Of a stretch of DNA of 64,000 nucleotides, positions 5,251-62,961 are shown in pieces. Position 1 is the first letter of the stretch. Each line of letters starts with the position of its first letter. The stretch comes from Naegleria gruberi (taxonomy: Eukaryota): assembly GCA_000004985.1 (NCBI GenBank), contig GG738881.1; one strand, written 5' to 3'. The position numbers were made by a program, and so were the translations under genes. The notes beneath the pieces are model-generated. The model did not search any database. It was not told where the DNA came from and was given only the letters and a program-made list of their open reading frames with translations.

Positions 5251-7450
5251 TTATTCATCGTGATGGAAAAAGTCATCATCAAATTCGGTGGCGCCAAAAA
5301 CGTCTCTATCAGAATCTGGGAACTCGAAAACATTATCAATATTTGGAGTTTCTGATAATTGGTTTTGGGTATTGCTGTTACTATTTGTAACACTTGGTGT
5401 ATTGGAATCGAGAATTGTTGGTGTTGAAGTTCCTGTTGCTGAATTATTGGTAACTGGAGTACTATTTGAGATTTGTCTATTCATGTCAGTATTATTAACG
5501 TTCATACTATTTGATGTGGTTGATTGCTCATCGTTCAATAAAGATCGTAACTTTTCTTCCACATCTCTACCAACTTTAACTAGAGGGGATTTCAGGAAAT
5601 TTTGAATGGTTTGTTTGGCTTGAGGGGTGGTTGTGGAAACTGGTGCTGGAGAACTCAGCAAATGAGTTATCATTTGAGAAATTTCAGTTCCAGCAGGTCC
5701 ATTAGTGTTAAACATGTTAGGCATATTGGAGTTTGAATCAGTTTCATTTCCAAGTCCAAGATTAACATTCATTTGTTGTTGCTTTTGTGGAGAGAGTGTA
5801 TTAGTACTGTTAAAGTTTGTTTGTTGTGGGTTTGTTGGTTGTTGTTGTTGTTGTCTGTACATGTTTTGTTGTTGTTGAGCAAAATTCAACACTGCATTAT
5901 TATTCATATTTTGTGGAATCATACCATTATTGGTTTGTTGAAAATTATTGATTCCAAGTACTGCTGCATTTTGAAGGTTAATACCAAAATTACCAGCGCC
6001 ATTAACGCCTGGATACACAAATGCTCCATTGTTTGTACTCATACCATTATTGACTTGAATGGTATTTGGTTGATTTGGAATCATTGTGAATGCATTTTGA
6101 CTGGTAACTGGTGAAGATGCAGAATTGTAAGGTGATTGAATATTTCCAGACATAATGCCAATACCTCCCATTGGTTGTTGTACACTAATCATTGAACCAC
6201 CTGTTGGTGTGGATGGCATTTGATTAACAGTGTTATTTTGAACAAGTAAACCTTGTTGTTGCATCATGCTTGCTTGTTCTTTAACCAGTTGATTGAATTG
6301 TGAAATTTGTTCCTTGATCAATAACCTAGTATTGTAAGCTTTGAAAAATTCAGGATTTTGTTGTTCTAATTTGCACCACATCAAGTTAATAAAGGCTCGT
6401 TCAATATTCTCGTATTTCTTACATAAAAAATCCATTGTCTCTTCTTTTGAAAGATAAAGCTTTAGGCATTGCTCAATCAATTGTTGTACCAATTTGATTT
6501 GCTCAACAGAGAATCTTCTCATTCCGTTGGCAGACATACCTGATTGTGTATTTGTTGTTGTATTGGTATTTGATGACAAAACTCCTCCACTATTATTACT
6601 AAGAGGTGTAGTTGATCGTTGCTGTGCTGACATGGTAATTGTATTTGGAACAGTACCACCAGTCATTTGACTCATAGGAGTTGATGGATTTCCCATGTTT
6701 GTCATATTATTCATGTTATTCATAGCATTTACATTGGACATATTCATATTGGCCATGTTTGTCATATTCATGTTATTAATATTCATCGTGTTGGCATCCA
6801 TACCATTGGTAAAACCTCCCATCATTTGTTGTTCGTTGCTAATCATACCATTACCATTAGTTTGTTGCACAATGGTTGTATTATTTGGCATTACTTGCTT
6901 TCCAGGATTTCTTAGATTATTATTGTTGTTTGGGGTGGTTAGTTGTTGTTGTAGGAATTGTAATAAATAGTTACTAGGGTCATTATTATTGTTCATGTTT
7001 TGCATTGGTATATTATTGTTTTGTACGTTCATGTTCATATTCATATTCATAGCTTGGCCATTGGCATTGTTGAGAGGTGTTTGTCCGTTCATCAAGTTAT
7101 TATTATTATTTTGATTCATAGGTTGCTATTGTTATTTTGTTGTTTTACAGTGGTTGGATGATGACATAGTCCACCAAGGAGATGAAATAGATTAATAAAT
7201 GTTAAATAACACTATTACTATTTGAAATACTTACTTGAAGAGCCCTGAACGTGTTGAAGAGTTGTTGGTTGTTTGCCATATTGTTCATGTTATTTGGCAT
7301 TGGATTTGCAACAACTGCTGGATTCATACCCATTTGCATATTTCTATTAACATTGTTGTTATTATTCATGAATGCATTGAAAAGGTGTTGTTGTTGTGGA
7401 TTGAGAACATTGACAATATCGTTGATTGCTTGTGGTGGAATATTACTCAT
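5251..7450 (-). CDS. Q/N-rich protein with a short conserved helical segment, probably a nuclear or transcriptional regulator. Two exons (7450..~7246 and ~7121..5251).
   Basis: Exon 1 ORF (7450..7202) ends ...FRALQ followed by GTAAGT. Acceptor ..caatag upstream of ATGAATCAAAAT at ~7122. Main ORF has long N/Q/M/T tracts and a non-repetitive block FSVEQIKLVQQLIEQCLKLYLSKEETMDFLCKKYENIERAFINLMWCKLEQQNPEFFKAYNTRLLIKEQ. Confidence 0.55.
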
Positions 7451-9004: not shown

Positions 9005-11546
9005 ATGTCAACTATCTCCGTATCACCTTCTGGTAATCCACAGTTTAATGTTGATCTTTGGAAAAACCGTTTAAATACTCACATGCAATTTTTGATCGCT
9101 ATTGGTCAACAAGTTGACTTGTACTTTGCACCAGACAAATTGCAAGACATGGTTAAATTGTACAACATGATGATTCCTCTCGTTTCCAAACATGGATCAC
9201 AAAATGTTTGGCTTCCAGAGTGTGTACAGTGGATTTTCCATTGCCACTTGTTGCATCCTATCGATTTCATGAAGGATTGCGAGTCAAACTTTGGACATTT
9301 GATTTTGTACAATACTCAAGCTCACATGTTAAATTCTGAACAAACAATGAAATGGTTTGAAGAGATGCACCAAGTCAATTTTGAAAATTGTTTGGATCAT
9401 TATGATGAATTGATTGCAAGAGAGAATTCAACTGTTTTCAAGCCATCAAGAGATTTGATTAAGGCTGCTCTCAACCAAAAGACTTTTACCACTCAATGTA
9501 AGCAAGTTTTTGGTGAATCTATTGAAAGCTCCACCCAAATTCAATACATGCTCGACAAGTACTTCAAGTTTATTGTGGCTATCAAGTCAATCATGATTAA
9601 GAGTGATGAACAGAGCTCTGAATTGGAATTCATGTTGGTTCCTACATTGGAAATTGATTTGGTTTGGCATACCCATTTGAGATATCCATATGATTACTTG
9701 ACATTTGTTAAGGAACAAACTGGTTATTTATTGAACCACGAAGATGATTTGGATTCTTTGGATGAAGAATTTGAAATGACCAAAACTTTCTGGAAGAAAC
9801 AATTCAATGAAGATTACGTGAGAACTAACCAACCAGTTGAAAATTCCATGACCCAAAAGGGAGAATGTTGCAATGTTGCCAAGGAAAATATGAATATTGA
9901 AGTATTGTCAACTGAATCCATGACTCAAAAGGGTGATTGTTGTAACATTGCCAAGCAAAACTCCTCTCAACAAATCATTCCAGTAATGAATCAAAAGGGA
10001 GAATGTTGTAATTTAGCCAAACAAAATGTAAATATGCCAATTCTCCAACCATCAATGACTCAAAAAGGTGATTGTTGTAACATTGCTAAGGATAACATCA
10101 ACAGTGAAATTCCAACTCTTGCCATGAATCAAAAGGGAGAATGTTGCAATGTTGCCAAGCAAAACCTCAATGGTGAAGTGCTTCCACCTTCTATGAATCA
10201 AAAAGGAGAGTGTTGTAATGTTGCAAAGATGAATTTGAACGAACCAGTTCTTCAACCATCAATGACTCAAAAGGGAGAATGCTGTAACGTAGCCAAACAA
10301 AATATTGATAAAGAAGTCCTTCCAGTCGGTATGAATCAAAAGGGTGAATGTTGCAATGTAGCTAAACACAACCTTAATGAACCAGTTCTCCAACTTTCCA
10401 TGAATCAAAAGGGAGAGTGTTGTAATGTTGCCAAGAATAATCTTAATGGACCAGTTCTTCAACCATCAATGACCCAAAAGGGTGATTGTTGTAACATTGC
10501 CAAGGATAACGTTAATCGGGAAATTCCAACTCTTGGAATGAATCAAAAGGGAGAATGTTGCAATGTTGCCAAGATGAATTTGAACGAGCCAGTTCTCCAA
10601 CCTGCCATGACCCAAAAGGGTGATTGTTGCAACATTGCCAAACACAATGTTGATATGGAAATTCCAACTCTTGGAATGAATCAAAAAGGTGATTGTTGCA
10701 ATGTAGCCAAACAAAATATTGATAAGGAAGTTCTTCCAGTCGGTATGAATCAAAAGGGTGATTGTTGCAATATTGCCAAGGACAATATCAATCGTGAAAT
10801 TCCAATTCTTGGAATGAATCAAAAGGGAGAATGCTGCAATGTAGCTAAACACAATTTGAACGAACCAGTTCTCCAACTTTCCATGAATCAAAAGGGAGAG
10901 TGTTGTAATGTTGCCAAGACGAACTTTGAACGAGCCAGTTCTCCAACCTGCAATGACCCAAAAGGGAGATTGCTGCAACATTGCCAAACACAATGTTGAT
11001 ATGGAAATTCCATCTCTTGGAATGAATCAAAAAGGTGATTGTTGCAATGTAGCCAAACAAAATATTGATAAGGAAGTCCTTCCAGTTGGTATGAATCAAA
11101 AGGGTGAATGTTGCAATGTTGCCAAACACAACCTTAATGAACCAGTTCTCCAACTTTCTATGAATCAAAAAGGAGAGTGTTGTAATGTTGCAAAGATGAA
11201 TTTGAACGAACCAGTTCTTCAACCATCAATGACCCAAAAGGGTGATTGCTGTAATATTGCTAAGGATAACATTAACAGTGAAATTCCATCTCTTGGAATG
11301 AATCAAAAAGGTGATTGTTGCAATATTGCCAAGATGAATTTGAATGCTGACATTATTCCACTCATGATGACTCAAAAGGGTGATTGCTGTAATTTGGCCA
11401 AGCAAAATGAAATGTTGCCAATTCTCGATCTTGGAATGAATCAAAAAGGAGAATGTTGCAATTTGGCCAAACAAAACGCCACTTGTGTCCTTCTCAGAGT
11501 TGGTCATTTGGAAATTCCAATCCTCAAGCCAGCTTTTGCCTTTTAA
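9005..11546 (+). CDS. Protein with a unique ~275-aa N-terminal domain followed by ~26 tandem 21-aa repeats (consensus MNQKGECCNVAKQNLNEPVLQPS) each carrying a vicinal Cys-Cys. The frame shifts by +1 near 10924, so it is listed as ORF 9005..10999 plus ORF 10908..11546.
   Basis: N-terminal region has no repeats (..LVWHTHLRYPYDYLTFVKEQTGYLLNHEDD..). The repeats start at ~9842. Two subtypes alternate by context (MTQKGDCCNIAK after ..LQPS/A; MNQKGECCNVAK after ..TLG/PVG/LQLS). Variability is concentrated in repeat residues 13-21. The C-terminus after the array is ..LRVGHLEIPILKPAFAF. Minus-strand ORFs 10052..11507 are antisense artefacts of the same repeats. Confidence 0.65.
9842..11480. repeat. 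Tandem array with a 63-bp period, about 26 copies, highly homogenised. It contains a near-identical internal block duplication (~10571..10918 vs ~10921..11215).
   Basis: Recurrent units atgaatcaaaagggagaatgttgcaatgttgccaag... are visible directly in the sequence. The two blocks differ by a few substitutions and one indel. Confidence 0.85.
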
Positions 11547-12146
11547 TTCTTAATAAACATTAAACCTATTTTGTGGCTTTCTTTATTGGGTTTTAGTTAT
11601 TGATAAAATCAATTTTGTAAACCATGTGGAGCCACGTGGAAGCAACGAAAGAGAAAGTTGGATGATGGCACTTCAACCAAGTCTGGAAATTCAGCTGCCT
11701 ATGTCCATTAACTTCATTCCAATTATTGCATTTAACAAATCAAATTGTTTGCTTAATAAATCTATAAAACGGCAGTTGGATATTAAAGAGATAAAACGTT
11801 GATGATCCATTCTACAGAATTTAATAATTGCCTTAATAGTAGCATTCCATCATCAAACCTTGAGCTTCAATCCACAATGAAACTTTCAATTCTTCCTTCC
11901 ACACACTCTCAATATTTTCTGCTCGTTCGGACCTTTTTAACAAATTAATAAATTCATCCATCAAAAAAAAATCCAAAACTTGCGCTTCGCATTCATTCAC
12001 CACTTGCTTTTTTTTTTCTGAAATTTAAAGTGACGGTTGGAGAAGGTTACAAGGGCCTTGCAATTTTAAAGTTCAGATAATCTTCTGTAATAGAAGTAAT
12101 TATTGTAGATTATTGATTTTTTATTGAAGAAGAATAAGGAGATCAA

Positions 12147-12923
12147 ATGATCGGATCATCGGCTATGCTTTATGGAAGCGTGGAGGAACATTGCTTTTCA
12201 AAACTACAACAACAACAAGATCAAGTTGATAATTTATTTAATTTATATAAAGGATCGAAGAGGTCTTCTTCGTTTCCTTCGAACAATTGTCTAAAACGAA
12301 AGTTGGATTCAATGGAAGAGGATCAAAAGACGTGTTGTGATGAATTAGTAGATGAAGAAGCATGTTGTTGTTCGACAAGGAAGAATTATACTAGTAGATC
12401 ATCAACGTTAGCACAATTTGAAGAAAATGATTTGTTTAGAGAAGTAAAGAGAGTTAAAACGAGTTTAACTCTGTCACATTTACAATTATCAACGTCCTCA
12501 TCATCATCATCACTGGTTGATTCGATGGAACAGGATGAAGATGTTGTTAAAGAAAATGTGCAAAGCAAAATAATTCCATGCTACAGTATTTTGAAAACCC
12601 CTAAATCACCCCCTAAATCTAACACTGAAAAGAGTTTATCCAATATAATGATAAAAGAAATTTGGAGGAGAAAACTTCAATCATCCCTAATGAGTCAGTC
12701 AACTGGAGTGTCACAATTACCAAGAACTGAAATTAACTTACATAACGAGTACGATTTTGATGAACCTGAGGAACGAGCAGTAATGCCAAATAGTATACCA
12801 CGAGAAGAGCTAATGAGGAGGCTGAAGACGAGGATTGATTCTGCATCAAATGGAAGGCAGCACCGTTTTGATGATCCTCATTCAACAGGAATCAGTGACG
12901 AGTTTGATATGGCAGATGATTAA
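12147..12923 (+). CDS. Hypothetical serine-rich acidic protein (no recognisable domain).
   Basis: Single 258-aa ORF with coding-like composition. Low-complexity S-rich and acidic stretches. Ends ...DEFDMADD. Confidence 0.3.
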   Translation: MIGSSAMLYGSVEEHCFSKLQQQQDQVDNLFNLYKGSKRSSSFPSNNCLKRKLDSMEEDQKTCCDELVDEEACCCSTRKNYTSRSSTLAQFEENDLFREVKRVKTSLTLSHLQLSTSSSSSSLVDSMEQDEDVVKENVQSKIIPCYSILKTPKSPPKSNTEKSLSNIMIKEIWRRKLQSSLMSQSTGVSQLPRTEINLHNEYDFDEPEERAVMPNSIPREELMRRLKTRIDSASNGRQHRFDDPHSTGISDEFDMADD

Positions 12924-25919: not shown

Positions 25920-27206
25920 TTAAAAGAGCAAATCTTCATTAGTTGAGGTCCATTGATTTTCATCAAAACATTCTTCTTGTTCTGTTGAGAATAAATCAGT
26001 GTGGAATAACTCTGAAGCTTGAGCATCTTCAAATTGTACATCCAATTCACCACCTTCAGTTGTGAAACCAGCATCCATTTCAAAGAAATTATTTTCATCA
26101 ATTTGTTTGTTCATGAAAATAACTTGATTTGGATAATAGGTTGGTGTATAAATTGGATAAGCATAAGGAACAGAGATTGCATCAACAAATGGAGCAGCAT
26201 TATGAACAACATATGGATGATAGGTTGGCATGGTTTGAATAACTGGAATGACTGGAGCAGTCATTGTGTTTTGAGGGAAAAGAACACCAGCTTGTTGAAG
26301 TGATTGGAAAAAGTCAATTTGCTTTGGTTGAGGTGATTCTGTTGACTTTTCATCTGGAGTCTTCTTTGTCTCTTCATTGTTAATGATTGGAGAACGTAAT
26401 AATACAACTGAATTACCATTCATATTCATATTTGATGGTGATTCAAGTAATGATGACAAGACATTCTTTGGTTCTTGAACAGCAGCTGTGGAAGTTGAAA
26501 TAACAGTTGTTGGACTGTTTGTTTGTGTGAAATTAACAATAGTTGGAGTCTTAATAAGTGGAGAGGAAGATGATTCAACAACTTTGGCAGTAACACTTGT
26601 TGTTGATTCAGTCTTCAATGGAGTTGGTCTCTTCTTCTTGGTGTATTGCATATCTTTGGTGGCAGAAGATCTCTTTCTCTTTGGTGTTTGAGATTGAGTG
26701 TTGGCAGTAGCAGAAGTGCTTGTTGAGGCAGATGGTTCCTTCTTATCCTTTTGCTTCTTGATAGAACGGAAAGCTTGATTAATATCAACACCACCTTCAA
26801 CAACTTCTTGTCCTTCCTTTTGCATCTTTCTCTTGTAACGAACTCTCTTATTGGAGAACCAATTGTTAATTTGGAGAAGGGACAAAGTTGTTTGATCGAC
26901 TAATCCCTTCTTTTCATCCTCACTAAAACAGATTATTAGAATATACAACAACAATGAATTGTAAACATACCTTGGATATGGATTTTGAAGATTAGCAAAG
27001 AACCAATCATTCAATACTTTGGTAATTTCCTTTGGGTAACCTTTTCTCTTCTTTCCGTGTTTTGACTTTCCATCAGCCTTGTCGCTTTCACAACCAGAAT
27101 CACTTTCAGAATATTGATGGAGAAGTGATGGGGAATCAAGAATCTTATCTTCTTGAGTTTCAATCAATGATGATTGACTTGTTGCAATAGTAGTAGTTGA
27201 TTGCAT
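25920..27206 (-). CDS. TALE-class homeobox transcription factor, copy 1. Two exons with an intron splitting the homeodomain after PYP.
   Basis: Exon 1 ...GKKRKGYPKEITKVLNDWFFANLQNPYP|GTATGT (intron ~26979..26932). Exon 2 SEDEKKGLVDQTTLSLLQINNWFSNKRVRYKRKMQ... shows the three-residue loop insertion and WF-N-R signature of TALE homeodomains. Long S/T/P-rich C-terminal half. Confidence 0.8.
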   Translation of the reverse strand: MQSTTTIATSQSSLIETQEDKILDSPSLLHQYSESDSGCESDKADGKSKHGKKRKGYPKEITKVLNDWFFANLQNPYPRYVYNSLLLYILIICFSEDEKKGLVDQTTLSLLQINNWFSNKRVRYKRKMQKEGQEVVEGGVDINQAFRSIKKQKDKKEPSASTSTSATANTQSQTPKRKRSSATKDMQYTKKKRPTPLKTESTTSVTAKVVESSSSPLIKTPTIVNFTQTNSPTTVISTSTAAVQEPKNVLSSLLESPSNMNMNGNSVVLLRSPIINNEETKKTPDEKSTESPQPKQIDFFQSLQQAGVLFPQNTMTAPVIPVIQTMPTYHPYVVHNAAPFVDAISVPYAYPIYTPTYYPNQVIFMNKQIDENNFFEMDAGFTTEGGELDVQFEDAQASELFHTDLFSTEQEECFDENQWTSTNEDLLF

Positions 27207-33310: not shown

Positions 33311-35458
33311 TTAAATATCATCCAGATCAAGTTCTTCATCATCCAGTCCAAGTAAATCGTCATTGGAAGGAGTTACATGTTGTTGGAATGGTGGTCTTGA
33401 AGATTTGGAGAAAGAGGGAGGTTGAGATGTGAATGGAGGTGAATCTTCAGCATATTCCGAACAAACAGAGGTAAGGTCATCAATATCTCCCAATTTTGAT
33501 TCAAAGTTTTCGAGCTCGTTTCTTATTTGATCTATAGTTGAAAATTCATGAAGTTCTTCATTTCCGAACGACATTAAACAATTCATTGAAGTTTCCAAAG
33601 TGGCAAGAGCATATCCTGCCTCTCCCTTAATTGCGTATTCAGGTAAAAGTTCACTCATCATTTGGAATTTGACAAACAAATCCATAATATTCGACTTGGC
33701 AACAACGTAAATGAAAATTGGAAGCAAATCATCAGCACCAACAATTATTGGTGGTGTAATTCCATGCTCATATCCATACTTTTGATAATAGTCATTGACG
33801 TCTTTTGAAACTTGATTCATAGCTAAACAAATAAAGTCAACCTTCTTGGTAAAGGATGTGGTTTGATCGAATTCTTTGAAAATTGCAATGGTTCTTTCGA
33901 AAGGATACCTCTCCTTCTCCAAAGTAAACTTATCAGGAAGCTTGAGTGCTTGGAGTGTTATTGTTGAGGTACATTTTGAAACCTTATCGTTCATTCTATT
34001 ATTTTCTTCTCCATAAACAAGTAAATATAAGAATAACAACTTGGAATAGATTCCATTTCCCCACATGGTATCCGTAATGGTATCTGATAAAGAATTAAAA
34101 ATGTTAAATCTTTTAAAAACATACCAATAACTATATCTTCATAATTTTGTGAAGGCATTTCCCAATACTTTCCAAAAAGTACCATACTCAATTTGTCAAT
34201 AAATAATTGAATATCATTCACACATTTAGAAATTAATTGTTTTGGATTCAAATCTGGATTGTGAATCATTTTGGAAGGATTACACACCTCTCCAAAATAT
34301 TCATAGAATTTAAGGCAAATTTGGCTTAAAGTGTGTGCCGGATTAGCCAATGTGAATGAAACGTGTTGTCTAATTTTTTGTTCGGTTATAGAATCGACTG
34401 GCATATCAGCCATATCATTTCCAGCAGAGACAGACAAGATTGGATTTAATATTGATGGCTTGGAAACTGTTTCCAGAAAAACTCTGTCCTGTTCTATCAG
34501 TATTGGATCCATATTTTGATAATTAAAGTAGGTATCAATGAATTTCGACCAATGATCCTGTTCCTTCCATCTAAATGTACGTTTCTTATTCTGAATTCGT
34601 TCCAAGAAGGACTCAACATTATTTCTCATTTCTGCTTGTCTAGCTCTTTCTATGCTTGTTTTTATCATTTGTTCTTTCATTTCTGTTAACCTTTGTTTTT
34701 CATATTCCTTTCTTTTCATTTGTAGCTATTTTGTTTAATATCCTAATCTGGTGTAAATTCAAACTTACAGTTTTACTAACGTCTTGCTTGGTTGTGTGAT
34801 TTGTGGCAGTTTGATTTGCACCACTAGAAGATGGAGTATTTGGAGAAGTATGAGAAGTACCTGATGATGGTGATGTAACACTAGTAGTTGGTGGTGGAAC
34901 TGTCGTTGATGCATTGCTTTGTGGAAATAGAGGTTTGCTAGCATGTGCCAATGAATGATTTGGTAATTTGGATCCAGAATTTGTAGGAGAAATGGTAGGA
35001 GGTTTCTTTGTTGGAATATTATTGGTTGATGATGTCGATGAAGGAGGAGAAGAGGATGTTTTGCTATTATTTGAATTAAAACTCGATGATGGAGAAGTAT
35101 TAGCAGTTGTAGTTGTAGCAGTAGTAGTAGAAGTAGTAGTACTATTATTATTGATTGAATTATGTGTCGATTCCTTATTAAACATTGCAGAAAGTGAAGC
35201 AATTCTCTCCATAGACTGTTCCGAATATTTGATTAATTGTATCGATTGATCGGATAATACATGTTGTTGATTAGTAGAACAAGTCTTCATTTCTGCCTGA
35301 ACAAAACTCGATATTTGCTCCATATACTTTAAATAATTGGCTAGTGCCATCCAGTGTTGCTGCTGTTCATCGTGGGTGATGGCCATCATTAGGGTCTTTT
35401 TAATATCATTCACGATGAGAATGGGTGGCGTGGCAGCAGCAGAACTATTGTTCGGCAT
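33311..35458 (-). CDS. VPS9-domain protein (Rab5-family GEF-like) with an S/T-rich linker. Three exons.
   Basis: Exon 1 35458..~34741 ends (...VSKT|GTAAGT). Exon 2 from ~34726 continues LQMKRKEYEKQRL... A third exon joins near 34050. The VPS9 domain is GITPPIIVGADDLLPIFIYVVAKSNIMDLFVKFQMMSELLPEYAIKGEAGYALATLETSMNCLMS. Acidic C-terminus ...LDDEELDLDDI. Confidence 0.75.
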
Positions 35459-43159: not shown

Positions 43160-44392
43160 TTAAAGTTTTCTAATTGAGATACCTCCCACAAAATCGCAAT
43201 ACTTATATGCTGGACTCCAAATTCCACTATCATATTCAGTAGGCAGAACTGTATCACAAACCATTCCCTTTGAAATAACACGAATGGAATCAACTGTTTT
43301 TCCAATATTTGGTAATCTCCAAAAGAGTGATTGAGTTTCACATGGAACAAATGAATCAATGAGAGGAATTTGTTCATTGTGAAGAATAGTTGCCTTTCCT
43401 TGAGAGTTTGGTGCTGAAAGAAGGGCAATTTCCAAATGTAAATTTTGAATGGTTGTTGTGAGAGGGAGATTGGTATCTCTCTTTGTAGAGGATGGTGGTG
43501 CAACACATGGATATTTGACCTTAATGTTAAAATCATTTTCCTTGACAGGTGTCATTGAAACATCTAATGGGAATGCAGCAACTGCAAAGAATGGTTTAAA
43601 ACATGTCTTGTCATCATTTGGCTCTGCATGTTTCCACATGTTACAAAAATCACTGACAGAATATCTGACTGTAGTTGGGTTTCCATCTCTATCCCAAGGA
43701 TCCAACATGATAATATGAGATACTTGATTATTTGATGTTTCGTATCCAACAGCAACTCTATAGTGTCCTGAAGATGTTGGACTATCTTTGAATTTCATTA
43801 AACACATTACAGGAATATCATTCTTCAAAAATTGATTGACCAAACTATCAACCCAACATTTAGTTGTGGTATCTTGTCTGGCTTGTTCACATGGCAACAA
43901 GGTATTTCTATCAGGATAATACAATGTAACCAAACCAGAATGCTCGAAAATATTTGCTGGAATTGATGCAAATGAATTATTTGCCAAACCAAACCAACCA
44001 TTCTTTGGAGAAACTTCTGGAAATTGGATATAATGTTGACTTTGAGGAGTAGAACTAATTGGTGAAAATCTAGCTCCTCTCACAACATCCAAACTCAATG
44101 TTCCTGAATGATTTGAAGTTCTAGCAACATCAATAATAGCTCTCTGATCAATAAACTTTTCTCTATAATAATACGAGAGCACCATATTCAAAGAGGCATC
44201 ACCACATGAATAATCTGTGATTTGATGCAAATATGGCACGTTCATAATTTTGTCTTTGAGTGGCGATATCATCTTCAATTCTGCTCCTCTCACCACCTCC
44301 TGGATTCCGAAGAAGCACACAACAATCATCATGACAATAAATGCATTAATAGGTGCACACCCATCAGAGTGATGACTCACTTTTGGAGACAT
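43160..44392 (-). CDS. Secreted or membrane-anchored C39-like cysteine peptidase domain protein (Peptidase_C39_2-like), intronless, with an extra C-terminal domain.
   Basis: N-terminal hydrophobic leader (INAFIVMMIVVCFFGIQEV). Catalytic Cys context QITDYSCGDASLNMVLSYYY (C39 Q..CG.A.L.M...YY). Catalytic His/Asp context SGHYRVAVGYE...HIIMLDPWDRDG. A further ~200 aa follow with several Cys. Confidence 0.65.
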   Translation of the reverse strand: MSPKVSHHSDGCAPINAFIVMMIVVCFFGIQEVVRGAELKMISPLKDKIMNVPYLHQITDYSCGDASLNMVLSYYYREKFIDQRAIIDVARTSNHSGTLSLDVVRGARFSPISSTPQSQHYIQFPEVSPKNGWFGLANNSFASIPANIFEHSGLVTLYYPDRNTLLPCEQARQDTTTKCWVDSLVNQFLKNDIPVMCLMKFKDSPTSSGHYRVAVGYETSNNQVSHIIMLDPWDRDGNPTTVRYSVSDFCNMWKHAEPNDDKTCFKPFFAVAAFPLDVSMTPVKENDFNIKVKYPCVAPPSSTKRDTNLPLTTTIQNLHLEIALLSAPNSQGKATILHNEQIPLIDSFVPCETQSLFWRLPNIGKTVDSIRVISKGMVCDTVLPTEYDSGIWSPAYKYCDFVGGISIRKL

Positions 44393-47530: not shown

Positions 47531-49329
47531 TAATTAAAAAAATGTCGGAAGGAAATACTCCACAAACATTGTCATCCAATAATAACATCGTTGAACAGGA
47601 AGTGAATGATTTTATTCAGAGAGGAAATAAATTAGTGTATGAAGGCAATATTACGGAGGCTGTTGAAGTTTTCAGTAAAGCCATTGAAATTGCACCAGAT
47701 AATCCATTTGTTTATGATATGAGAGCTTCGGGTATGTGGATTTATTTATCATGGCAATAATTAATCATCATTAATTAGCCTACATTTTGATGGATGAATA
47801 TGAGAAGGCTGTATTTGATGCTGAGAAATCTATTGAAATTAAACCTTCATGGTCTCAAGGATATTTCAGAAAGGGTTTAGCTTTATCACTTGTTGGAGAT
47901 ATGGAAGCAGCAATTAATACTTTAAATGCTGGTTTGGAAGTCAATCCAAAGCATGCATCCATGATCAAATTGAGACAAGATTTATTGGATTATGTCAGTC
48001 AAAATAATGAGGAAAATGTAAATATTCTTGGAGGTGATGATTTGGAACCATTTACTGATGATGAAAAACTTCCAGTTACAATTTTGAGTGGATTTCTTGG
48101 AAGTGGAAAAACCACTCTTCTCAATCACATTTTACAAAATAAGGAAGGTCTCAAAGTTGCTGTTGTTGTAAATGATATGAGTGAAGTCAATATTGATGCT
48201 GAATTGGTGAATCAATCTAGTGCATTGTCTCGTGTTGATGAAAAGATGGTTGAAATGACCGTAAGTATTTCATTAACTACTACTGTGTTAATTCTTGAAC
48301 CTCCTTCAGAACGGATGTATTTGTTGTACATTGAGAGAGGATTTACTTCAAGAGGTTGGTAAATTGGCCAAGCAAAAGAAGTTTGATTATCTCCTCATTG
48401 AATCAACAGGCATTGCTGAGCCATTGCCAATCGCCCAAACATTCTTCTTCCAAGACCAGAGAGGTAAAATGCTTTCACATTACACAAGATTGGATACTTT
48501 GGTGACTGTTATTGATTGTTTTAATTTTATGAAAGATTACACAAGTGATTCTACATTGGCCACAAGAAACATGGGAATTAACGATAATGATAATAGAAAT
48601 GTTGTGGATCTCCTTTTGGACCAAATCGACTTTGCCAATGTCATTATTTTGAACAAGACTGATTTGATTAGTGAAAAGAAATTAGGAAAACTCGAAGCAA
48701 TTATTAAGAAATTGAATAATGATGCTGTAATTATCAAGTCTGAATATTCAAAGGTTGACCTCAGGTCCATACTTAATACCAAACTCTTTGATTATGAAAA
48801 GGCTCTCAAAACACCAGGATGGATTAAAGAGCTTCAAAAAGAACACACCCCAGAAACTGAAGAGTATGGAATCAGTTCGTTTGTATATAGAAGAAGAAAA
48901 CCATTTGTACCACAAAAGTTATATGATTGCATCCATGATGGAAAACTCAAAGGTATAATTAGGTCAAAAGGATTTTTCTGGCTTGCCAGTGATAATAGCA
49001 CACTTTATGAGTGGGCAACTGCTGGGCAAACATTTTCCTTTGCTCCAAAATCAGTTTGGTTTGCATCCCTACCTGAGGAAAAGAAGCAACAAATTCCAAA
49101 TGAGAAGGTTGAAGAAATTCTTCGGGAAACCAAATATGAAGGAAAATTCGGAGATAGAAGACAGGAAGTTGTGTTTATAGGAAGTAATATGAATAAGGAA
49201 GAATTAATAGACACTTTGGATCAATGTTTACTCACAGATGAAGAGATGACTTTGGAAATGACTGAATGGGAAAGTAACTATGCCAATCCATTCAAAGAGT
49301 TCATGCATCAACACAAACACCAAGACTAA
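47531..49329 (+). CDS. TPR-repeat + CobW/COG0523 family GTPase (putative zinc metallochaperone, ZNG1/CBWD-like) fusion. Three exons.
   Basis: Exon 1 has a TPR ([31 protein letters not shown]). Intron ~47736..47781. Exon 2 has more TPR (..[36 protein letters not shown]..), then the P-loop [20 protein letters not shown] and the switch region [12 protein letters not shown]. Intron ~48262..48306. Exon 3 has the metal-binding [13 protein letters not shown], ..[11 protein letters not shown].., and a C-terminal CobW_C-like region. Stop 49327-29. Confidence 0.8.
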
Positions 49330-61869: not shown

Positions 61870-62961
61870 TTGCCTCTGTGCACAGAAACTATGGGAAACG
61901 AAGATGTTATTTTTGGTCTTACATGTTGCAAGTCAACGTCAGCCATCATTACAAAAAAAACGTTAGAAAAAAAAATGGCAACTCAAAATATTATTCATCA
62001 CCCTCTGTATCCTTCGGTGCTTGCCAGTCAAAGTGTTACCATTGCGGATGGTCATCGTCACTATAAAAACATTTCCGCACAACCAACAACAGTGACAAGT
62101 GAAGACATTAAGAGAAAGTTACATGAAATTGGTGACAGTGAAATTCCGAATCAAACACAAACTTCAATTGATGTCTCTGTACAAAATGATAACGGTTCTA
62201 TCATCAATCAATTATTTAGTAGTTATTTACAACAAACTTCATATCCTACAATTATTGAAAGTGAGCTTCCTACACTTTCAGAACCACAACCATCACAAGC
62301 CGATGATGTGTTAATTGGCATGACAGCAATGCACACTCTTGCAAAGATTGAACTACAAAGCTTGTATAATTTATGTGAGGATTATATTGACAGAATGCAT
62401 CACACTTTACATATTGAAAAACAAAACGCCAAACAAAATGCCAAACAAAAAGTACAATATCCTTTAGTTTATACCGGATCCAGTATTGCTGGTTTTAACA
62501 GTCAAGGAGGTAACTTGGCATTTGGTCAATCAAGTGGAGACGATCAAACAGATCAAATGGATCAAAATGATAATGGTTCTGATGGATCTGGACTTGATGA
62601 TGATTACTCATTATCTGATATGAAGAAACCAGAAGATGTTGTTAAGGAATTGAAGAAACGTTATTCTGGAGAAGTTTTAAATCTTGCTAAAAAGAAGAAG
62701 AATTTCTGTAAATCATCAACAGACGTATTAAATGTTTGGTTTTTCCAACATTTACATGATCCATATCCAAGTGATGATGAAAAGAGAGTTCTTTCACAAC
62801 AAACTGGACTCTCACTTTCTCAAGTTAACAATTGGTTTGGTAACAAGAGAATGAGATATAAGCGTAAAATGTTGGAACAAAATAGAAAGAATGGAAAATC
62901 TCAAGAGGACGAATCTCAACAATTACAATTCCATAATGATCAAGATTTTAATTTTAATTAA
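61870..62961 (+). CDS. TALE-class homeobox transcription factor, copy 2 (paralog of the 25920..27206 gene). The true start is probably the internal Met (MATQNIIHH, ~61975).
   Basis: C-terminal homeodomain ..FCKSSTDVLNVWFFQHLHDPYPSDDEKRVLSQQTGLSLSQVNNWFGNKRMRYKRKML is very close to copy 1 (..VLNDWFFANLQNPYPSEDEKKGLVDQTTLSLLQINNWFSNKRVRYKRKMQ). Acidic/N-rich middle region. No intron at the PYP position, unlike copy 1. Confidence 0.8.
   Translation: MPLCTETMGNEDVIFGLTCCKSTSAIITKKTLEKKMATQNIIHHPLYPSVLASQSVTIADGHRHYKNISAQPTTVTSEDIKRKLHEIGDSEIPNQTQTSIDVSVQNDNGSIINQLFSSYLQQTSYPTIIESELPTLSEPQPSQADDVLIGMTAMHTLAKIELQSLYNLCEDYIDRMHHTLHIEKQNAKQNAKQKVQYPLVYTGSSIAGFNSQGGNLAFGQSSGDDQTDQMDQNDNGSDGSGLDDDYSLSDMKKPEDVVKELKKRYSGEVLNLAKKKKNFCKSSTDVLNVWFFQHLHDPYPSDDEKRVLSQQTGLSLSQVNNWFGNKRMRYKRKMLEQNRKNGKSQEDESQQLQFHNDQDFNFN

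Follow-up and report, generated by a model that had tools for sequence, protein, structure and literature searches.

A predicted Naegleria gruberi gene joining a GRDP-like (DUF1399) domain to a tail of 24 Cys-Cys repeat units

What kind of protein is specified where a non-repetitive N-terminal region runs directly into a long array of short peptide units, each bearing a Cys-Cys dyad? The question is posed by positions 9005-11546 (+ strand, as are all features given below) of a 64,000-nucleotide stretch of Naegleria gruberi DNA, hereafter the window, which belongs to a heterolobosean and not to the dictyostelid or other amoebozoan presumed in the original prediction. The locus holds a predicted gene in which a GRDP-like domain (PF07173, formerly DUF1399) is joined to a Cys-Cys repeat tail. 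The best overall explanation, a GRDP-like protein whose amplified Cys-Cys tail would form a multivalent thiol array, is given an even chance of being correct; weighing against it are the frameshifted state of the gene and the want of a gene model.

The locus had been read as one gene in a single frame, a reading that overlooked a frameshift at 10924. Two ORFs (9005..10999 and 10908..11546, offset +1) in fact span the region. From the ATG at 9005, which opens the N-terminal region, the sequence as assembled gives a 664-aa product that ends at a premature TGA (10997..10999) in the original frame, and removal of the single extra base at 10924 gives a corrected CDS of 2541 nt (846 codons plus stop) and a product of 846 aa. 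The extra C is located in repeat unit 16 (10883..10952, 70 bp), where alignment with the paralogous unit 11 shows GAA-C-TTTG against GAATTTG, and the repeat spacing shows a 139-nt step at the frameshift. Units 17-24 (10953..11504) are intact, though shifted to the +1 frame with respect to the start codon, and are followed by the unique C-terminal tail HLEIPILKPAFAF with its TAA stop (11505..11546, the stop at 11544-11546), as read from the sequence. An intron that would restore the frame was rejected in favor of a 1-nt indel because the indel is directly visible in the alignment of units 16 and 11; 137 arithmetic GT..AG solutions exist, none of them compelling, and each deletes coding-like repeat units. 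A programmed +1 frameshift, for which no supporting feature was found, is considered improbable. The extra base reflects either an error of sequencing or assembly or else a mutation or allele of very recent date.

A real frameshift could also mark a dead or dying gene (a pseudogene), and a repeat array could have been mis-assembled in the number or order of its units. The insertion at 10924 together with a second substitution 6 nt upstream of it would fit such a reading, as would the difficulty of assembling tandem arrays in general. Three homology searches retrieved no N. gruberi gene model for the locus, and exact look-ups found neither the 664-aa nor the 212-aa product nor the corrected 846-aa one, although the database does contain NAEGRDRAFT_69956, which matches the neighbouring ORF with 100% identity over 1001 aa; the N. 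gruberi gene is missing from the public proteome. However, both halves of the coding sequence are stop-free, whereas the other two frames hold 14 and 19 stops downstream of the frameshift. Between units 17-21 and their nearest upstream paralogues, 13 changes are synonymous and 3 non-synonymous, where neutrality would predict 81% non-synonymous (P=1e-7), and the C-terminal tail beyond the frameshift still aligns to orthologues, so that any decay must be very recent. With most units differing from one another by 20-45% in DNA sequence, collapse or mis-joining becomes less likely. A dead gene or an artefact of assembly is considered unlikely.

The non-repetitive N-terminal region (9005..9847) comprises 281 residues, near the ~275 originally estimated, and the resemblance to DUF1399 that had been offered with reservation is confirmed by Pfam, in which PF07173 matches aa 88-232 (profile positions 2-141 of 143) with 41.1 bits against a cutoff of 22.7 (E=3.7e-10). 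A profile search returned PF07173 proteins exclusively, and exhaustive phmmer searching gave 1043 matches to the N-terminal region. The signature of the family, two W-H-x-H-x-L-x-P-x-x-[YF] helix-kink-helix motifs and an H-[DE]-D loop, is recognizable in WIFHCHLLHPIDF (aa 76-88), LVWHTHLRYPYDY (aa 219-231) and NHEDD (aa 244-248). Conservation was evaluated in an alignment of 56 sequences. At the first motif (H79-C80-H81 of 'W-I-F-H-C-H-L-L-H-P', 9239..9247), H81, L83, P85 and D91 are at least 90% conserved, with H79, C80, H81 and H84 invariant among the four closest relatives; at the second (W221-H222-T223-H224 of 'DLVWHTHLRYPYDY', 9665..9676), W221 is invariant and H222, H224, P228 and Y231 are invariant or at least 90% conserved. 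H245 and D247 of the H245-E-D247 loop (in 'LNHEDD', 9737..9745; family consensus HDD) are likewise at least 90% conserved, and D218 is also among the conserved residues of the domain. The H245/D247 loop is a candidate for the third part of a putative metal site. An AF2 model is all-alpha (pLDDT 84.8 overall and >90 in the domain), and no solved structural relative of the domain model was found. Judged by these profile and motif matches, the N-terminal 281 aa can be classed as a genuine member of the eukaryote-wide GRDP-like/DUF1399 family, for which plant phenotypes include stress tolerance, seed size and cell death. No central region separates the domain from the repeats.

The array itself consists of 24 tandem units (9848..11504), defined by tandem repeat finding, motif count and unit alignment. 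TRF detects it, it is the sole large tandem array within the window, and the degenerate motif CAAAARGGNGANTGYTGYAAY occurs 24 times at 0 mismatches, against 0.05 occurrences expected. A tandem array behind a unique N-terminus is therefore upheld, with its dimensions revised: the period is 69 bp (23 aa) instead of 63 bp (21 aa), and there are 24 units instead of ~26. Only unit 1 (72 bp), unit 2 (66 bp) and unit 16 deviate from the common length, giving start-to-start spacings of 72, 66, 69 x13, 70 and 69 x7. The consensus unit, M[NT]QKG[ED]CCN[VIL]AK-xN[LIV][ND]x[EP][VI][LP]x[LPV][GSA], is divided, much as had been described, into a 12-residue invariant part (M-[NT]-Q-K-G-[ED]-C-C-N-[VIL]-A-K) and an 11-residue variable part, the latter being itself patterned (N14, a hydrophobic residue at 15, [ND]16 and [VI]19). 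Two flavours of unit do exist, one with 'DCCNIAK', usually followed by xN[IV][ND]xEIP[TS]LG, and the other with 'ECCNVAK', usually followed by xNLNEPVLQ[PL][SA]; the two are interspersed, and do not strictly alternate as once suggested. The 565 aa of repeat region and tail contain 49 Cys (a density of 8.7%, or 2 per 23 aa) and 36 Gly, with two aromatic residues, no GGGC and a net charge of -2. The composition is rich in N/Q/K/E/P/G, the 24 evenly spaced Met...Cys-Cys sites supply 48 thiols, and the tail is probably non-globular. The expected lack of a signal peptide and of basic processing sites was also borne out, there being no hydrophobic N-terminus or TM segment (maximum Kyte-Doolittle 19-mer score 1.2) and a sole dibasic pair, KK264, which lies within the domain. 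The protein is accordingly predicted to be of cytosolic type.

The sameness of the units had been ascribed to near-identity of the DNA copies under ongoing concerted evolution, and the account is supported on neither count. Pairwise DNA identity between units averages 70% (range 53-100%), only a few pairs reach 95-100% (6=20, 13~18, 12~17, 8~19), and synonymous differences between units have reached saturation (pS 0.71). At M1, Q3, K4, G5, C7, C8, N9, A11, K12 and N14 the first two codon positions are nevertheless 100% conserved, while the third positions of these ten invariant residues are 48-81% conserved, with the exception of Q3 (also 100%). For codons 1-12 dN/dS is 0.027, as compared to 0.47 for codons 13-23. 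Because synonymous sites are saturated while codon positions 1 and 2 remain fixed, unit sameness is due mainly to purifying selection on the peptide, which is strong in the invariant half, and simple concerted evolution does not account for it. Recent block duplications are few. Units 11-13 (10538..10744) belong to a recent duplication of three units, as its source or as a sister block, and the other copy lies at 10883-11090, with units 11-13 differing from units 16-18 by 4, 3 and 2 nt per pair plus the 1-nt indel. Each unit has long been kept individually by purifying selection, with recent multi-unit block duplications still adding copies.

The repeat was then sought elsewhere. No homologue was found by phmmer in 1.84e9 representative proteins, and a word-indexed search of 5.8e9 proteins gave a single match, from Geosiphon, to the domain. 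A metagenome scan with the patterns MNQKGECC and MNQKGDCC gave no confirmed locus, a second with a subfamily alignment gave 11 distant GRDP loci, none with a Cys-Cys array, and a scan of viral contigs gave nothing. A PDB sequence search with the repeat had no significant match (best E=0.65, to an engineered OspA beta-hairpin repeat), Pfam at E<=10 had no real match to it, metallothionein families included, and nothing bearing on the locus was found in the literature on Naegleria Cys-repeat proteins or metallothioneins. The claim that the gene matches no known family is thus sound for the repeat itself, across Pfam, PDB, protein and metagenome collections, but not for the architecture, which is that of the plant DUF1399-GRDP proteins (PMC4299439, PMC13001069).

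One resemblance that did emerge from phmmer is to leucine-rich repeats, and would make the array a folded beta-solenoid or LRR-like domain of 23-residue period, with a protein-binding surface and structural cysteines. The array was aligned to the BspA-type LRR proteins P0021, P0024 and P0083 at E~1e-14; BspA/TpLRR repeats have the same 23-aa period, a weak register of C, N, hydrophobic and G positions (C-x-N-[LV]...N-[IL]...[VI]..[LV]-G) is shared, the invariant N9 and N14 are reminiscent of an Asn ladder, and a low-confidence AF2 model of the array shows periodic beta bridges. However, the Pfam LRR_5 profile misses the array even at E<=10, yet matches P0021 at 1e-151, and hhalign assigns a probability of 18%. 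Hydrophobic core positions are polar here (the LRR 'A-F' positions are Q-K), the array is nearly devoid of aromatics and has few large hydrophobics, and pLDDT of the units is <50 in both AF2 models (<50 in the MSA-based model and, uninformatively, 48.5 for the repeat in single-sequence mode). LRR homology was rejected, the phmmer matches to BspA LRR and WD40-like proteins (16-31% identity) reflecting periodicity or composition, and a folded repeat domain of this kind is considered quite improbable.

More informative as to origin are the closest relatives of the protein, the environmental, metagenomic P0227 (45% identity) and P0002 (48%), which align end-to-end with the N-terminus, one unit and the tail of the N. 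gruberi protein. The two are 45-48% identical to it across the domain and share the linker, which is followed by 'KKA[ET]CCC' and a tail of ~25 aa; unit 24 and the C-terminal tail of the Naegleria protein are collinear with their C-termini. Each carries a single Cys cluster (CCC and a further Cys), in contrast to 24 Cys-Cys units. Because these closest relatives carry one 'KKA[ET]CCC' unit and a similar tail, the 24-unit array is taken, from the alignments, to be a lineage-specific amplification of that single C-terminal motif. P0227 originates from JGI metagenome 3300062347 (locus L002, 8001-8846), and the contig, at 33.7% GC and gene-dense, is similar to Naegleria; no synteny was found between L002 and the window.

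Cysteine-bearing tails recur throughout the family. Among 201 GRDP-like homologues surveyed, 59 (~30%) have at least three Cys in the last 40 aa, mostly as (G)nC, and 15 end in ...GD. Periodic-Cys tails come from molluscs, rotifers, fungi, amoebozoans, malawimonads and plants, and the Cys-tail pattern is also present in 6 of the 11 metagenomic GRDP loci. Repeated units make up the tail in Cavostelium ('ASCGSGCGAKNA' x14), Gefionella, rotifers and one protist ('SCLPGGCVLGGCVSKANKK' x9). The combination of the domain with short Cys-pair tandem units is known from Cavostelium P0031 ('ASCGSGCGA[NK][KR]VANANSP' x~14), metagenomic P0124 ('ASCLPGGCV[LP]GGCVSKANKK' x~9), P0009 ('SCGGGGNVS' x6), Gefionella P0029, and the (G)nC...GD tails of rotifers and molluscs. 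These tails have a mini-pattern of Cys, small residue and [AS]-K-x-N in common with the CCNVAKxN of Naegleria, but differ in their units (9-21 aa), in having CxxxC or CGGGC in place of CC, and in Gly content. The likeness may be one of convergence, no significant similarity between the tails having been demonstrated.

The plant DUF1399-GRDP proteins (AtGRDP1/AtGRDP2, GhGRDP1, OsGRDP1) likewise have an N-terminal PF07173 without signal peptide and, as seen here, low-complexity C-terminal repeats with interspersed Cys (PMC4299439). They differ in having DUF1399 singly or in duplicate and, centrally, a region that includes a putative RNP-1 motif (KGSCFLPM), and in a glycine-rich tail of ~50 aa with the GRD consensus [CG]GGGCGG[GC] and interspersed Cys (PMC4299439). 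The Naegleria tail of 565 aa is not Gly-rich and falls outside the GRD definition, and its 23-aa unit, in which two Cys are vicinal and ten residues invariant, does not resemble the plant GRD in sequence. It constitutes a new and expanded form of the Cys-bearing tail that follows the GRDP-like domain across eukaryotes, in a new variant of the DUF1399-GRDP architecture.

What would such a tail do? The roles listed in the original prediction (metal or redox binding, acylated scaffold, structural, cargo-like) are still supported as the right candidates. Metallothioneins built from repeats (Cryptococcus CMT1/2, Tetrahymena MTs, Neurospora Cu-MT) scale metal capacity with module number, and are Lys/Asn/Gln-rich and aromatic-poor, some with CC dyads; GRDP family tails such as CGSGC, SCGSKC and CSSSC are presumed here to resemble fungal Cu-metallothionein sequences. 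Repeated Cys-bearing modules are described for CMT1/2 (PMC7578549). A thiol-based, metallothionein-like metal or redox array is the mechanism favoured for the Naegleria tail, though tentatively. Such a multivalent array would sequester soft metal ions (Cu(I), Zn, Cd) or redox equivalents or pass them on, would be tethered to a putative metalloprotein domain whose conserved His/Asp resemble a metal site, and its capacity would be set by unit copy number. Several findings speak against it. True metallothioneins are small, with roughly 15-30% Cys in CxC/CxxC clusters, whereas this array is far below that density, is fused to a large unrelated domain in a protein of 846 aa, and gives zero metallothionein Pfam matches even at E<=10. 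Strict invariance of Q3, K4, G5, N9, A11, K12 and N14 is hard to explain by thiols alone and suggests rather that each unit is recognized in a sequence-specific manner or is folded. No GRDP protein is known from experiment or structure to bind metals, and the sole biochemical datum for the family, the binding and activation of UDP-rhamnose synthase by GhGRDP1, does not involve metals (PMC13001069).

Recognition of each unit could be by the domain itself, as in a borosin-like autocatalytic precursor in which a metal-dependent domain modifies the Cys-Cys dyads of fused substrate units, the invariant 12-mer serving as recognition sequence and the variable 11-mer as core or spacer, with the units perhaps released as peptides. 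The division into conserved and variable halves, the very low dN/dS of the recognition-like residues, ongoing amplification of unit copies, the enzyme-like conserved His/Asp in a novel fold, the coupling of the domain to Cys-bearing tails across eukaryotes, and a tail that is probably disordered and hence accessible are all consistent with this. The likeness to borosins (OphMA-type) is conceptual only, consisting of a catalytic-looking domain and a C-terminal substrate-like peptide; borosins have a known SAM methyltransferase fold and one or few cores, unlike a domain whose fold has no solved relative. No DUF1399 protein is known to be catalytically active. The units lack flanking dibasic or other obvious cleavage sites in a protein without signal peptide, the 'variable' half is itself patterned, the nearest relatives hold one unit only, and no protease or transporter partner genes stand out nearby. 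An autocatalytic precursor of the borosin kind is considered rather doubtful. More specifically, that the GRDP-like domain is an unrecognised metal-dependent enzyme fold acting on its own tail cysteines, in a self-modifying precursor with 24 substrate copies, has little probability; if true, its output would be either Cys-Cys peptides bearing a modification or a thiol polymer with covalent changes, and it would explain the periodic-Cys tails behind the domain from plants to molluscs.

Vicinal Cys beside basic residues is a common context for S-acylation, which the units fit, and the tail could then be a 'cysteine-string' anchor or scaffold in which palmitoylated dyads next to Lys stitch tail and domain onto an endomembrane. 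In the closest relatives 'KKAECCC...C' followed by a hydrophobic-leaning C-terminus resembles a lipidated targeting tail; P0031, P0001, P0068 and P0100 have a TM-like hydrophobic stretch at the tail position, and elsewhere in the family 'SSCA[VIM][VI]' lies beside hydrophobic residues. Cotton GhGRDP1 is cytoplasmic and ER-associated, co-localising with an ER marker (PMC13001069). On the other hand, 24 dyads far exceed the needs of an anchor, most relatives have (G)nC...GD tails whose glycine-rich, acidic or neutral composition is unlike that of acylation sites, and the Naegleria protein has no primary membrane-affinity element, its hydropathy reaching at most 1.2 and myristoylation or prenylation motifs absent. 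S-acylation of the tail appears improbable.

Whichever chemistry applies, periodic-Cys tails are seen to be a recurrent partner of the GRDP-like domain across eukaryotic supergroups and not a 'glycine-rich' peculiarity of plants, and this recurrence focuses the search for domain function on thiol chemistry (metal, redox, acylation, Cys modification). The locus, in which the domain is tethered to 24 Cys-Cys units each conserved in its own right, is an extreme natural experiment. Should the tail prove to bind metals, a metallothionein-like module of a new type would be added in a lineage for which none is described; should the domain modify the tail, it would represent a new enzyme class. A substantial unannotated gene is also added to the N. 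gruberi reference, with a probable base error or recent frameshift flagged.

Scanning the window for Rfam families and tRNAs gave no match. The antisense ORFs over the array (67-175 aa) were set aside as mirror artefacts of a stop-free periodic coding sequence. An AATAAA hexamer at 11552..11557, 6 nt 3' of the stop, matches the consensus for a polyadenylation signal in AT-rich DNA and possibly serves as one.

Reading of the sequence from an ATG at 9005 (+) revealed a 281-aa non-repetitive coding region, directly after which, at 9848 (+), a tandem array begins that extends to 11504. The array is real, as the original prediction had it: the degenerate motif CAAAARGGNGANTGYTGYAAY has 24 mismatch-free occurrences where 0.05 are expected by chance, and Tandem Repeats Finder agrees, reporting a 69-bp period with 21.6 copies and 68% matches. 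Its dimensions had to be revised, however, from a period of 63 bp (21 aa) to 69 bp (23 aa), and from about 26 copies to 24, as counted by anchoring on the unit start ATGA[AC][TC]CAAAA[AG]GG, with unit-to-unit spacings of 72, 66, 69 (13 times), 70 and 69 (7 times). No second large tandem array occurs in the 64-kb window. Each 23-aa unit (consensus M[NT]QKG[ED]CCN[VIL]AK plus a variable 11-mer) joins, as proposed, an invariant part, here of 12 residues, to a variable part of 11. Across the 21 units whose length is exactly 69 bp, residues M1, Q3, K4, G5, C7, C8, N9, A11, K12 and N14 are invariant, and the "variable" half also follows a pattern (N14, hydrophobic 15, [ND]16, [EP]18, [VI]19, [LP]20, [LPV]22, [GSA]23). 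The two unit subtypes thought to alternate by context do exist, one reading DCCNIAK then ...EIP[TS]LG and the other ECCNVAK then ...PVLQP[SA], but they are interspersed along the array. Antisense ORFs of 67-175 aa at 10052-11507 (-) were rejected as genes, being mirror artefacts of periodic stop-free coding sequence.

The region 9005-11546, taken earlier for a single ORF, consists of two. Frame A stops at 10997-10999 (+), giving a 664-aa product, and the rest of the array is read in the +1 frame, in an ORF at 10908-11546 (+). Alignment of unit 16 with its close paralogue, unit 11, located one extra C at 10924 (GAA-C-TTTG where unit 11 reads GAATTTG), which makes unit 16 70 bp long; taking it out yields an 846-aa protein. 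Frame-restoring GT..AG introns were enumerated as an alternative to an indel, and none of the 137 arithmetic solutions was convincing, each deleting perfectly coding-like units. Downstream of the frameshift the array frame is open, with 14 and 19 stops in the other two frames; between units 17-21 and the most similar paralogues upstream of them, 13 changes are synonymous and 3 non-synonymous (P=1e-7, against 81% non-synonymous under random change), and the C-terminal tail can still be aligned with orthologues. This region is not decaying, which means that the frameshift must have arisen very recently unless it is an error in the reference; it is unlikely that the gene is really dead or the locus artefactual.

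Within the units of 69 bp, first and second codon positions of the ten invariant residues are 100% conserved and third positions 48-81%, with the exception of Q3, which is always CAA. Nei-Gojobori estimates over all unit pairs gave a dN/dS of 0.027 with a saturated pS of 0.71 for codons 1-12, and a dN/dS of 0.47 with a pS of 0.61 for codons 13-23. The DNA copies, previously described as near-identical, have a mean identity of 70% (range 53-100%). Because dN/dS is low, synonymous sites are saturated and the DNA is only 70% identical, long-term purifying selection on each unit, and not mainly homogenisation, keeps the peptide uniform, and the 24 M...CC sites are counted as individually conserved. 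Concerted evolution, offered earlier as an explanation, is thus mainly set aside, except that a few unit pairs are 95-100% identical (6 = 20, 13 ~ 18, 12 ~ 17, 8 ~ 19), among them those of a three-unit block present at 10538-10744 (+) and again at 10883-11090 (+), so that there has been recent block duplication as well.

The corrected protein contains 54 Cys and no TM segment and, in line with the earlier remark that it lacks a signal peptide and basic processing sites, has neither a hydrophobic N-terminus nor a dibasic site outside the domain. Its tail (repeats plus C-terminal end) has 2 aromatics among 565 residues and a net charge of -2, and it is probably non-globular; single-sequence AlphaFold2 on 15 units was uninformative (pLDDT 48.5). 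The repeat found nothing real in Pfam at E<=10, nothing significant among PDB sequences and nothing in metagenome and viral scans. Over the repeat region phmmer matched WD40-like proteins and LRR proteins of the BspA type, 16-31% identical; BspA LRRs resemble the array in their 23-residue period and, weakly, in a C/N/hydrophobic/G register. LRR homology was rejected, with no match to the LRR_5 profile (a control matched at 1e-151) and a profile-profile probability of 18%. As far as these searches reach, the repeat is an orphan of no known family.

The guess that the N-terminus resembles DUF1399 was borne out, with aa 88-232 passing the Pfam gathering score for PF07173 (GRDP-like, the former DUF1399). 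Exhaustive phmmer with the N-terminus returned 1043 matches at E<1e-3, the true ones spanning aa ~13-290. Nearly invariant in a 56-sequence alignment are H81, L83, P85, D91, Q158, F161, Y186, P213, D218, W221, H222, H224, P228, Y231, H245, D247, T259 and W263, and the conserved residues make two "W-H-x-H-x-L-x-P-x-x-Y" motifs and an "H-D-D" loop. With this alignment, AlphaFold2 gave a confident all-alpha domain (mean pLDDT 84.8, >90 across aa ~10-279), and two repeat units appended to the model had pLDDT <50. Foldseek against the PDB found no solved structural relative of the model below E=1, and a profile search of PDB sequences with the domain was empty. The domain is counted as conserved, with His/Asp signatures, and the His/Asp set suggests a putative metal site.

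The closest homologues of the protein are metagenomic, namely P0002 (277 aa, 48% identity) and P0227 (281 aa, 45% identity), the latter encoded at a locus, L002, that has 33.7% GC, is gene-dense like Naegleria, and has no synteny with the window. Each can be aligned over its full length with the N-terminus, one unit and the C-terminal tail of the N. gruberi protein, and reads "...NEPYE", then "KKA[ET]CCC...", then a ~25-aa tail. Because they are collinear with a single-unit form, the N. gruberi array is taken to be a lineage-specific amplification, and one shown by the alignment, of one ancestral Cys-cluster motif. A further GRDP-like protein, P0004 (251 aa, 30% identity), lies on an 18.8-kb metagenomic contig (L001, JGI 3300037860, Ga0401357_00416) with closely spaced called genes, all in one orientation; the contig may derive from a protist or from a giant virus.

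Reading of homologue tails showed the domain to be joined time and again to Cys-bearing C-terminal repeats. Of the 201 homologues whose tails were 15 aa or longer, 59 carry three or more Cys in the final 40 residues, for the most part in (G)nC repeats, and the tails of 15 finish in "...GD"; at average Cys frequency some 3-4% of tails would be expected, by our own estimate, to carry that many Cys. The pattern is also present at 6 of 11 metagenomic loci. Discrete units occur in Cavostelium (P0031, "ASCGSGCGA[NK][KR]VANANSP", ~14 copies), P0124 ("ASCLPGGCV[LP]GGCVSKANKK", ~9) and P0009 ("SCGGGGNVS", 6), and further examples come from Gefionella (P0029), rotifers, molluscs and Geosiphon. The C-terminal signature "...[SG]CGG[GC]CGGD" is common to many unrelated GRDP-like proteins (P0011, P0014, P0064, P0067, P0074, P0095, P0135, P0148; loci L003-L008), several of which also carry "SSCA[VIM][VI]" ~25 residues past the conserved Trp; both are conserved motifs rather than plain low complexity. 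In P0031, P0001, P0068 and P0100 a TM-like hydrophobic stretch stands right after the domain, where others carry the Cys tail, a hint that the C-terminal region of GRDP-like proteins may be a membrane-association device. In AtGRDP2 the "glycine-rich domain" follows the consensus [CG]GGGCGG[GC] and is interspersed with Cys (PMC4299439), and GhGRDP1 is cytoplasmic, ER-associated, and activates UDP-rhamnose synthase (PMC13001069). Since Cys-bearing tails recur in homologues and plants, the DUF1399-GRDP architecture is already known, so that the claim of no known family holds for the repeat only; compared with plant DUF1399-GRDP, the Naegleria tail is a new, Gly-poor and greatly expanded variant. 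The domain is coupled to periodic Cys family-wide, and a DUF1399 function tied to periodic cysteines is the lead counted most useful.

Partnered with the domain, the tail would do thiol chemistry. Tentatively favoured is a possible metallothionein-like array handling metal or redox, because family tails resemble Cys/Gly/Ser metal-thiolate peptides, capacity would plausibly grow with the number of copies, and the domain looks putatively metal-binding. Against it count a Cys density of only 8.7% in the tail, the lack of a metallothionein profile match in Pfam (E<=10), and the fact that Q, K, G, N, A, K and N never vary, which argues for sequence-specific recognition. That invariance keeps alive an unlikely alternative in which the domain would be an enzyme acting on its own fused substrate units, and leaves open a folded solenoid, which is distinctly unlikely. 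An S-acylated cysteine-string, to which the non-Cys invariance and the TM-like segments at the tail position in some relatives also leave room, would be quite improbable.

The DNA is heterolobosean and not dictyostelid, because a neighbouring 1001-aa ORF at 19885-22890 matches NAEGRDRAFT_69956 of Naegleria gruberi at 100% identity (68% to N. fowleri, 47% to Willaertia); gene density, few introns and the 34% GC of the window are consistent with this. No N. gruberi protein for the array locus was found in a word-indexed search of 5.8e9 proteins, in exhaustive phmmer of 1.84e9 representatives or by profile search, and the 664-aa, 212-aa and corrected 846-aa products had no exact match either. As the N. 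gruberi proteome is present in these databases, which the neighbour match shows, the locus appears unannotated, and the lead ranked second in usefulness is this N. gruberi gene itself, which lacks annotation and may have been mis-sequenced. Three overlapping ORFs at 33311-35458 (-) of 251, 242 and 252 aa, the first with a VPS9 domain, look like a single gene broken up by short introns or further frame errors, and bear on how common indel errors are in the assembly.

Immediately downstream of the array, a 258-aa ORF at 12147-12923 (+) of no Pfam family also has vicinal cysteines ("KTCCDELVDEEACCCS"), probably a coincidence. A CobW/ZNG1-like metallochaperone GTPase (PF02492 + PF07683) is encoded at 48295-49329 (+), 37 kb from the array, and no link is claimed. 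A 622-aa ORF at 5251-7119 (-) has a "plant protein 1589" domain (PF09713, E=2e-20), placing it and the GRDP-like domain, two "plant-named" domains without assigned function, in the same 6 kb. The 410-aa ORF at 43160-44392 (-) contains a Peptidase_C39-like domain (PF13529, E=2.7e-11), of a family that is mostly bacterial and unusual in a eukaryotic genome, and two TALE-class (Homeobox_KN) homeobox genes lie within 36 kb, at 25920-27206 (-) and 61870-62961 (+).
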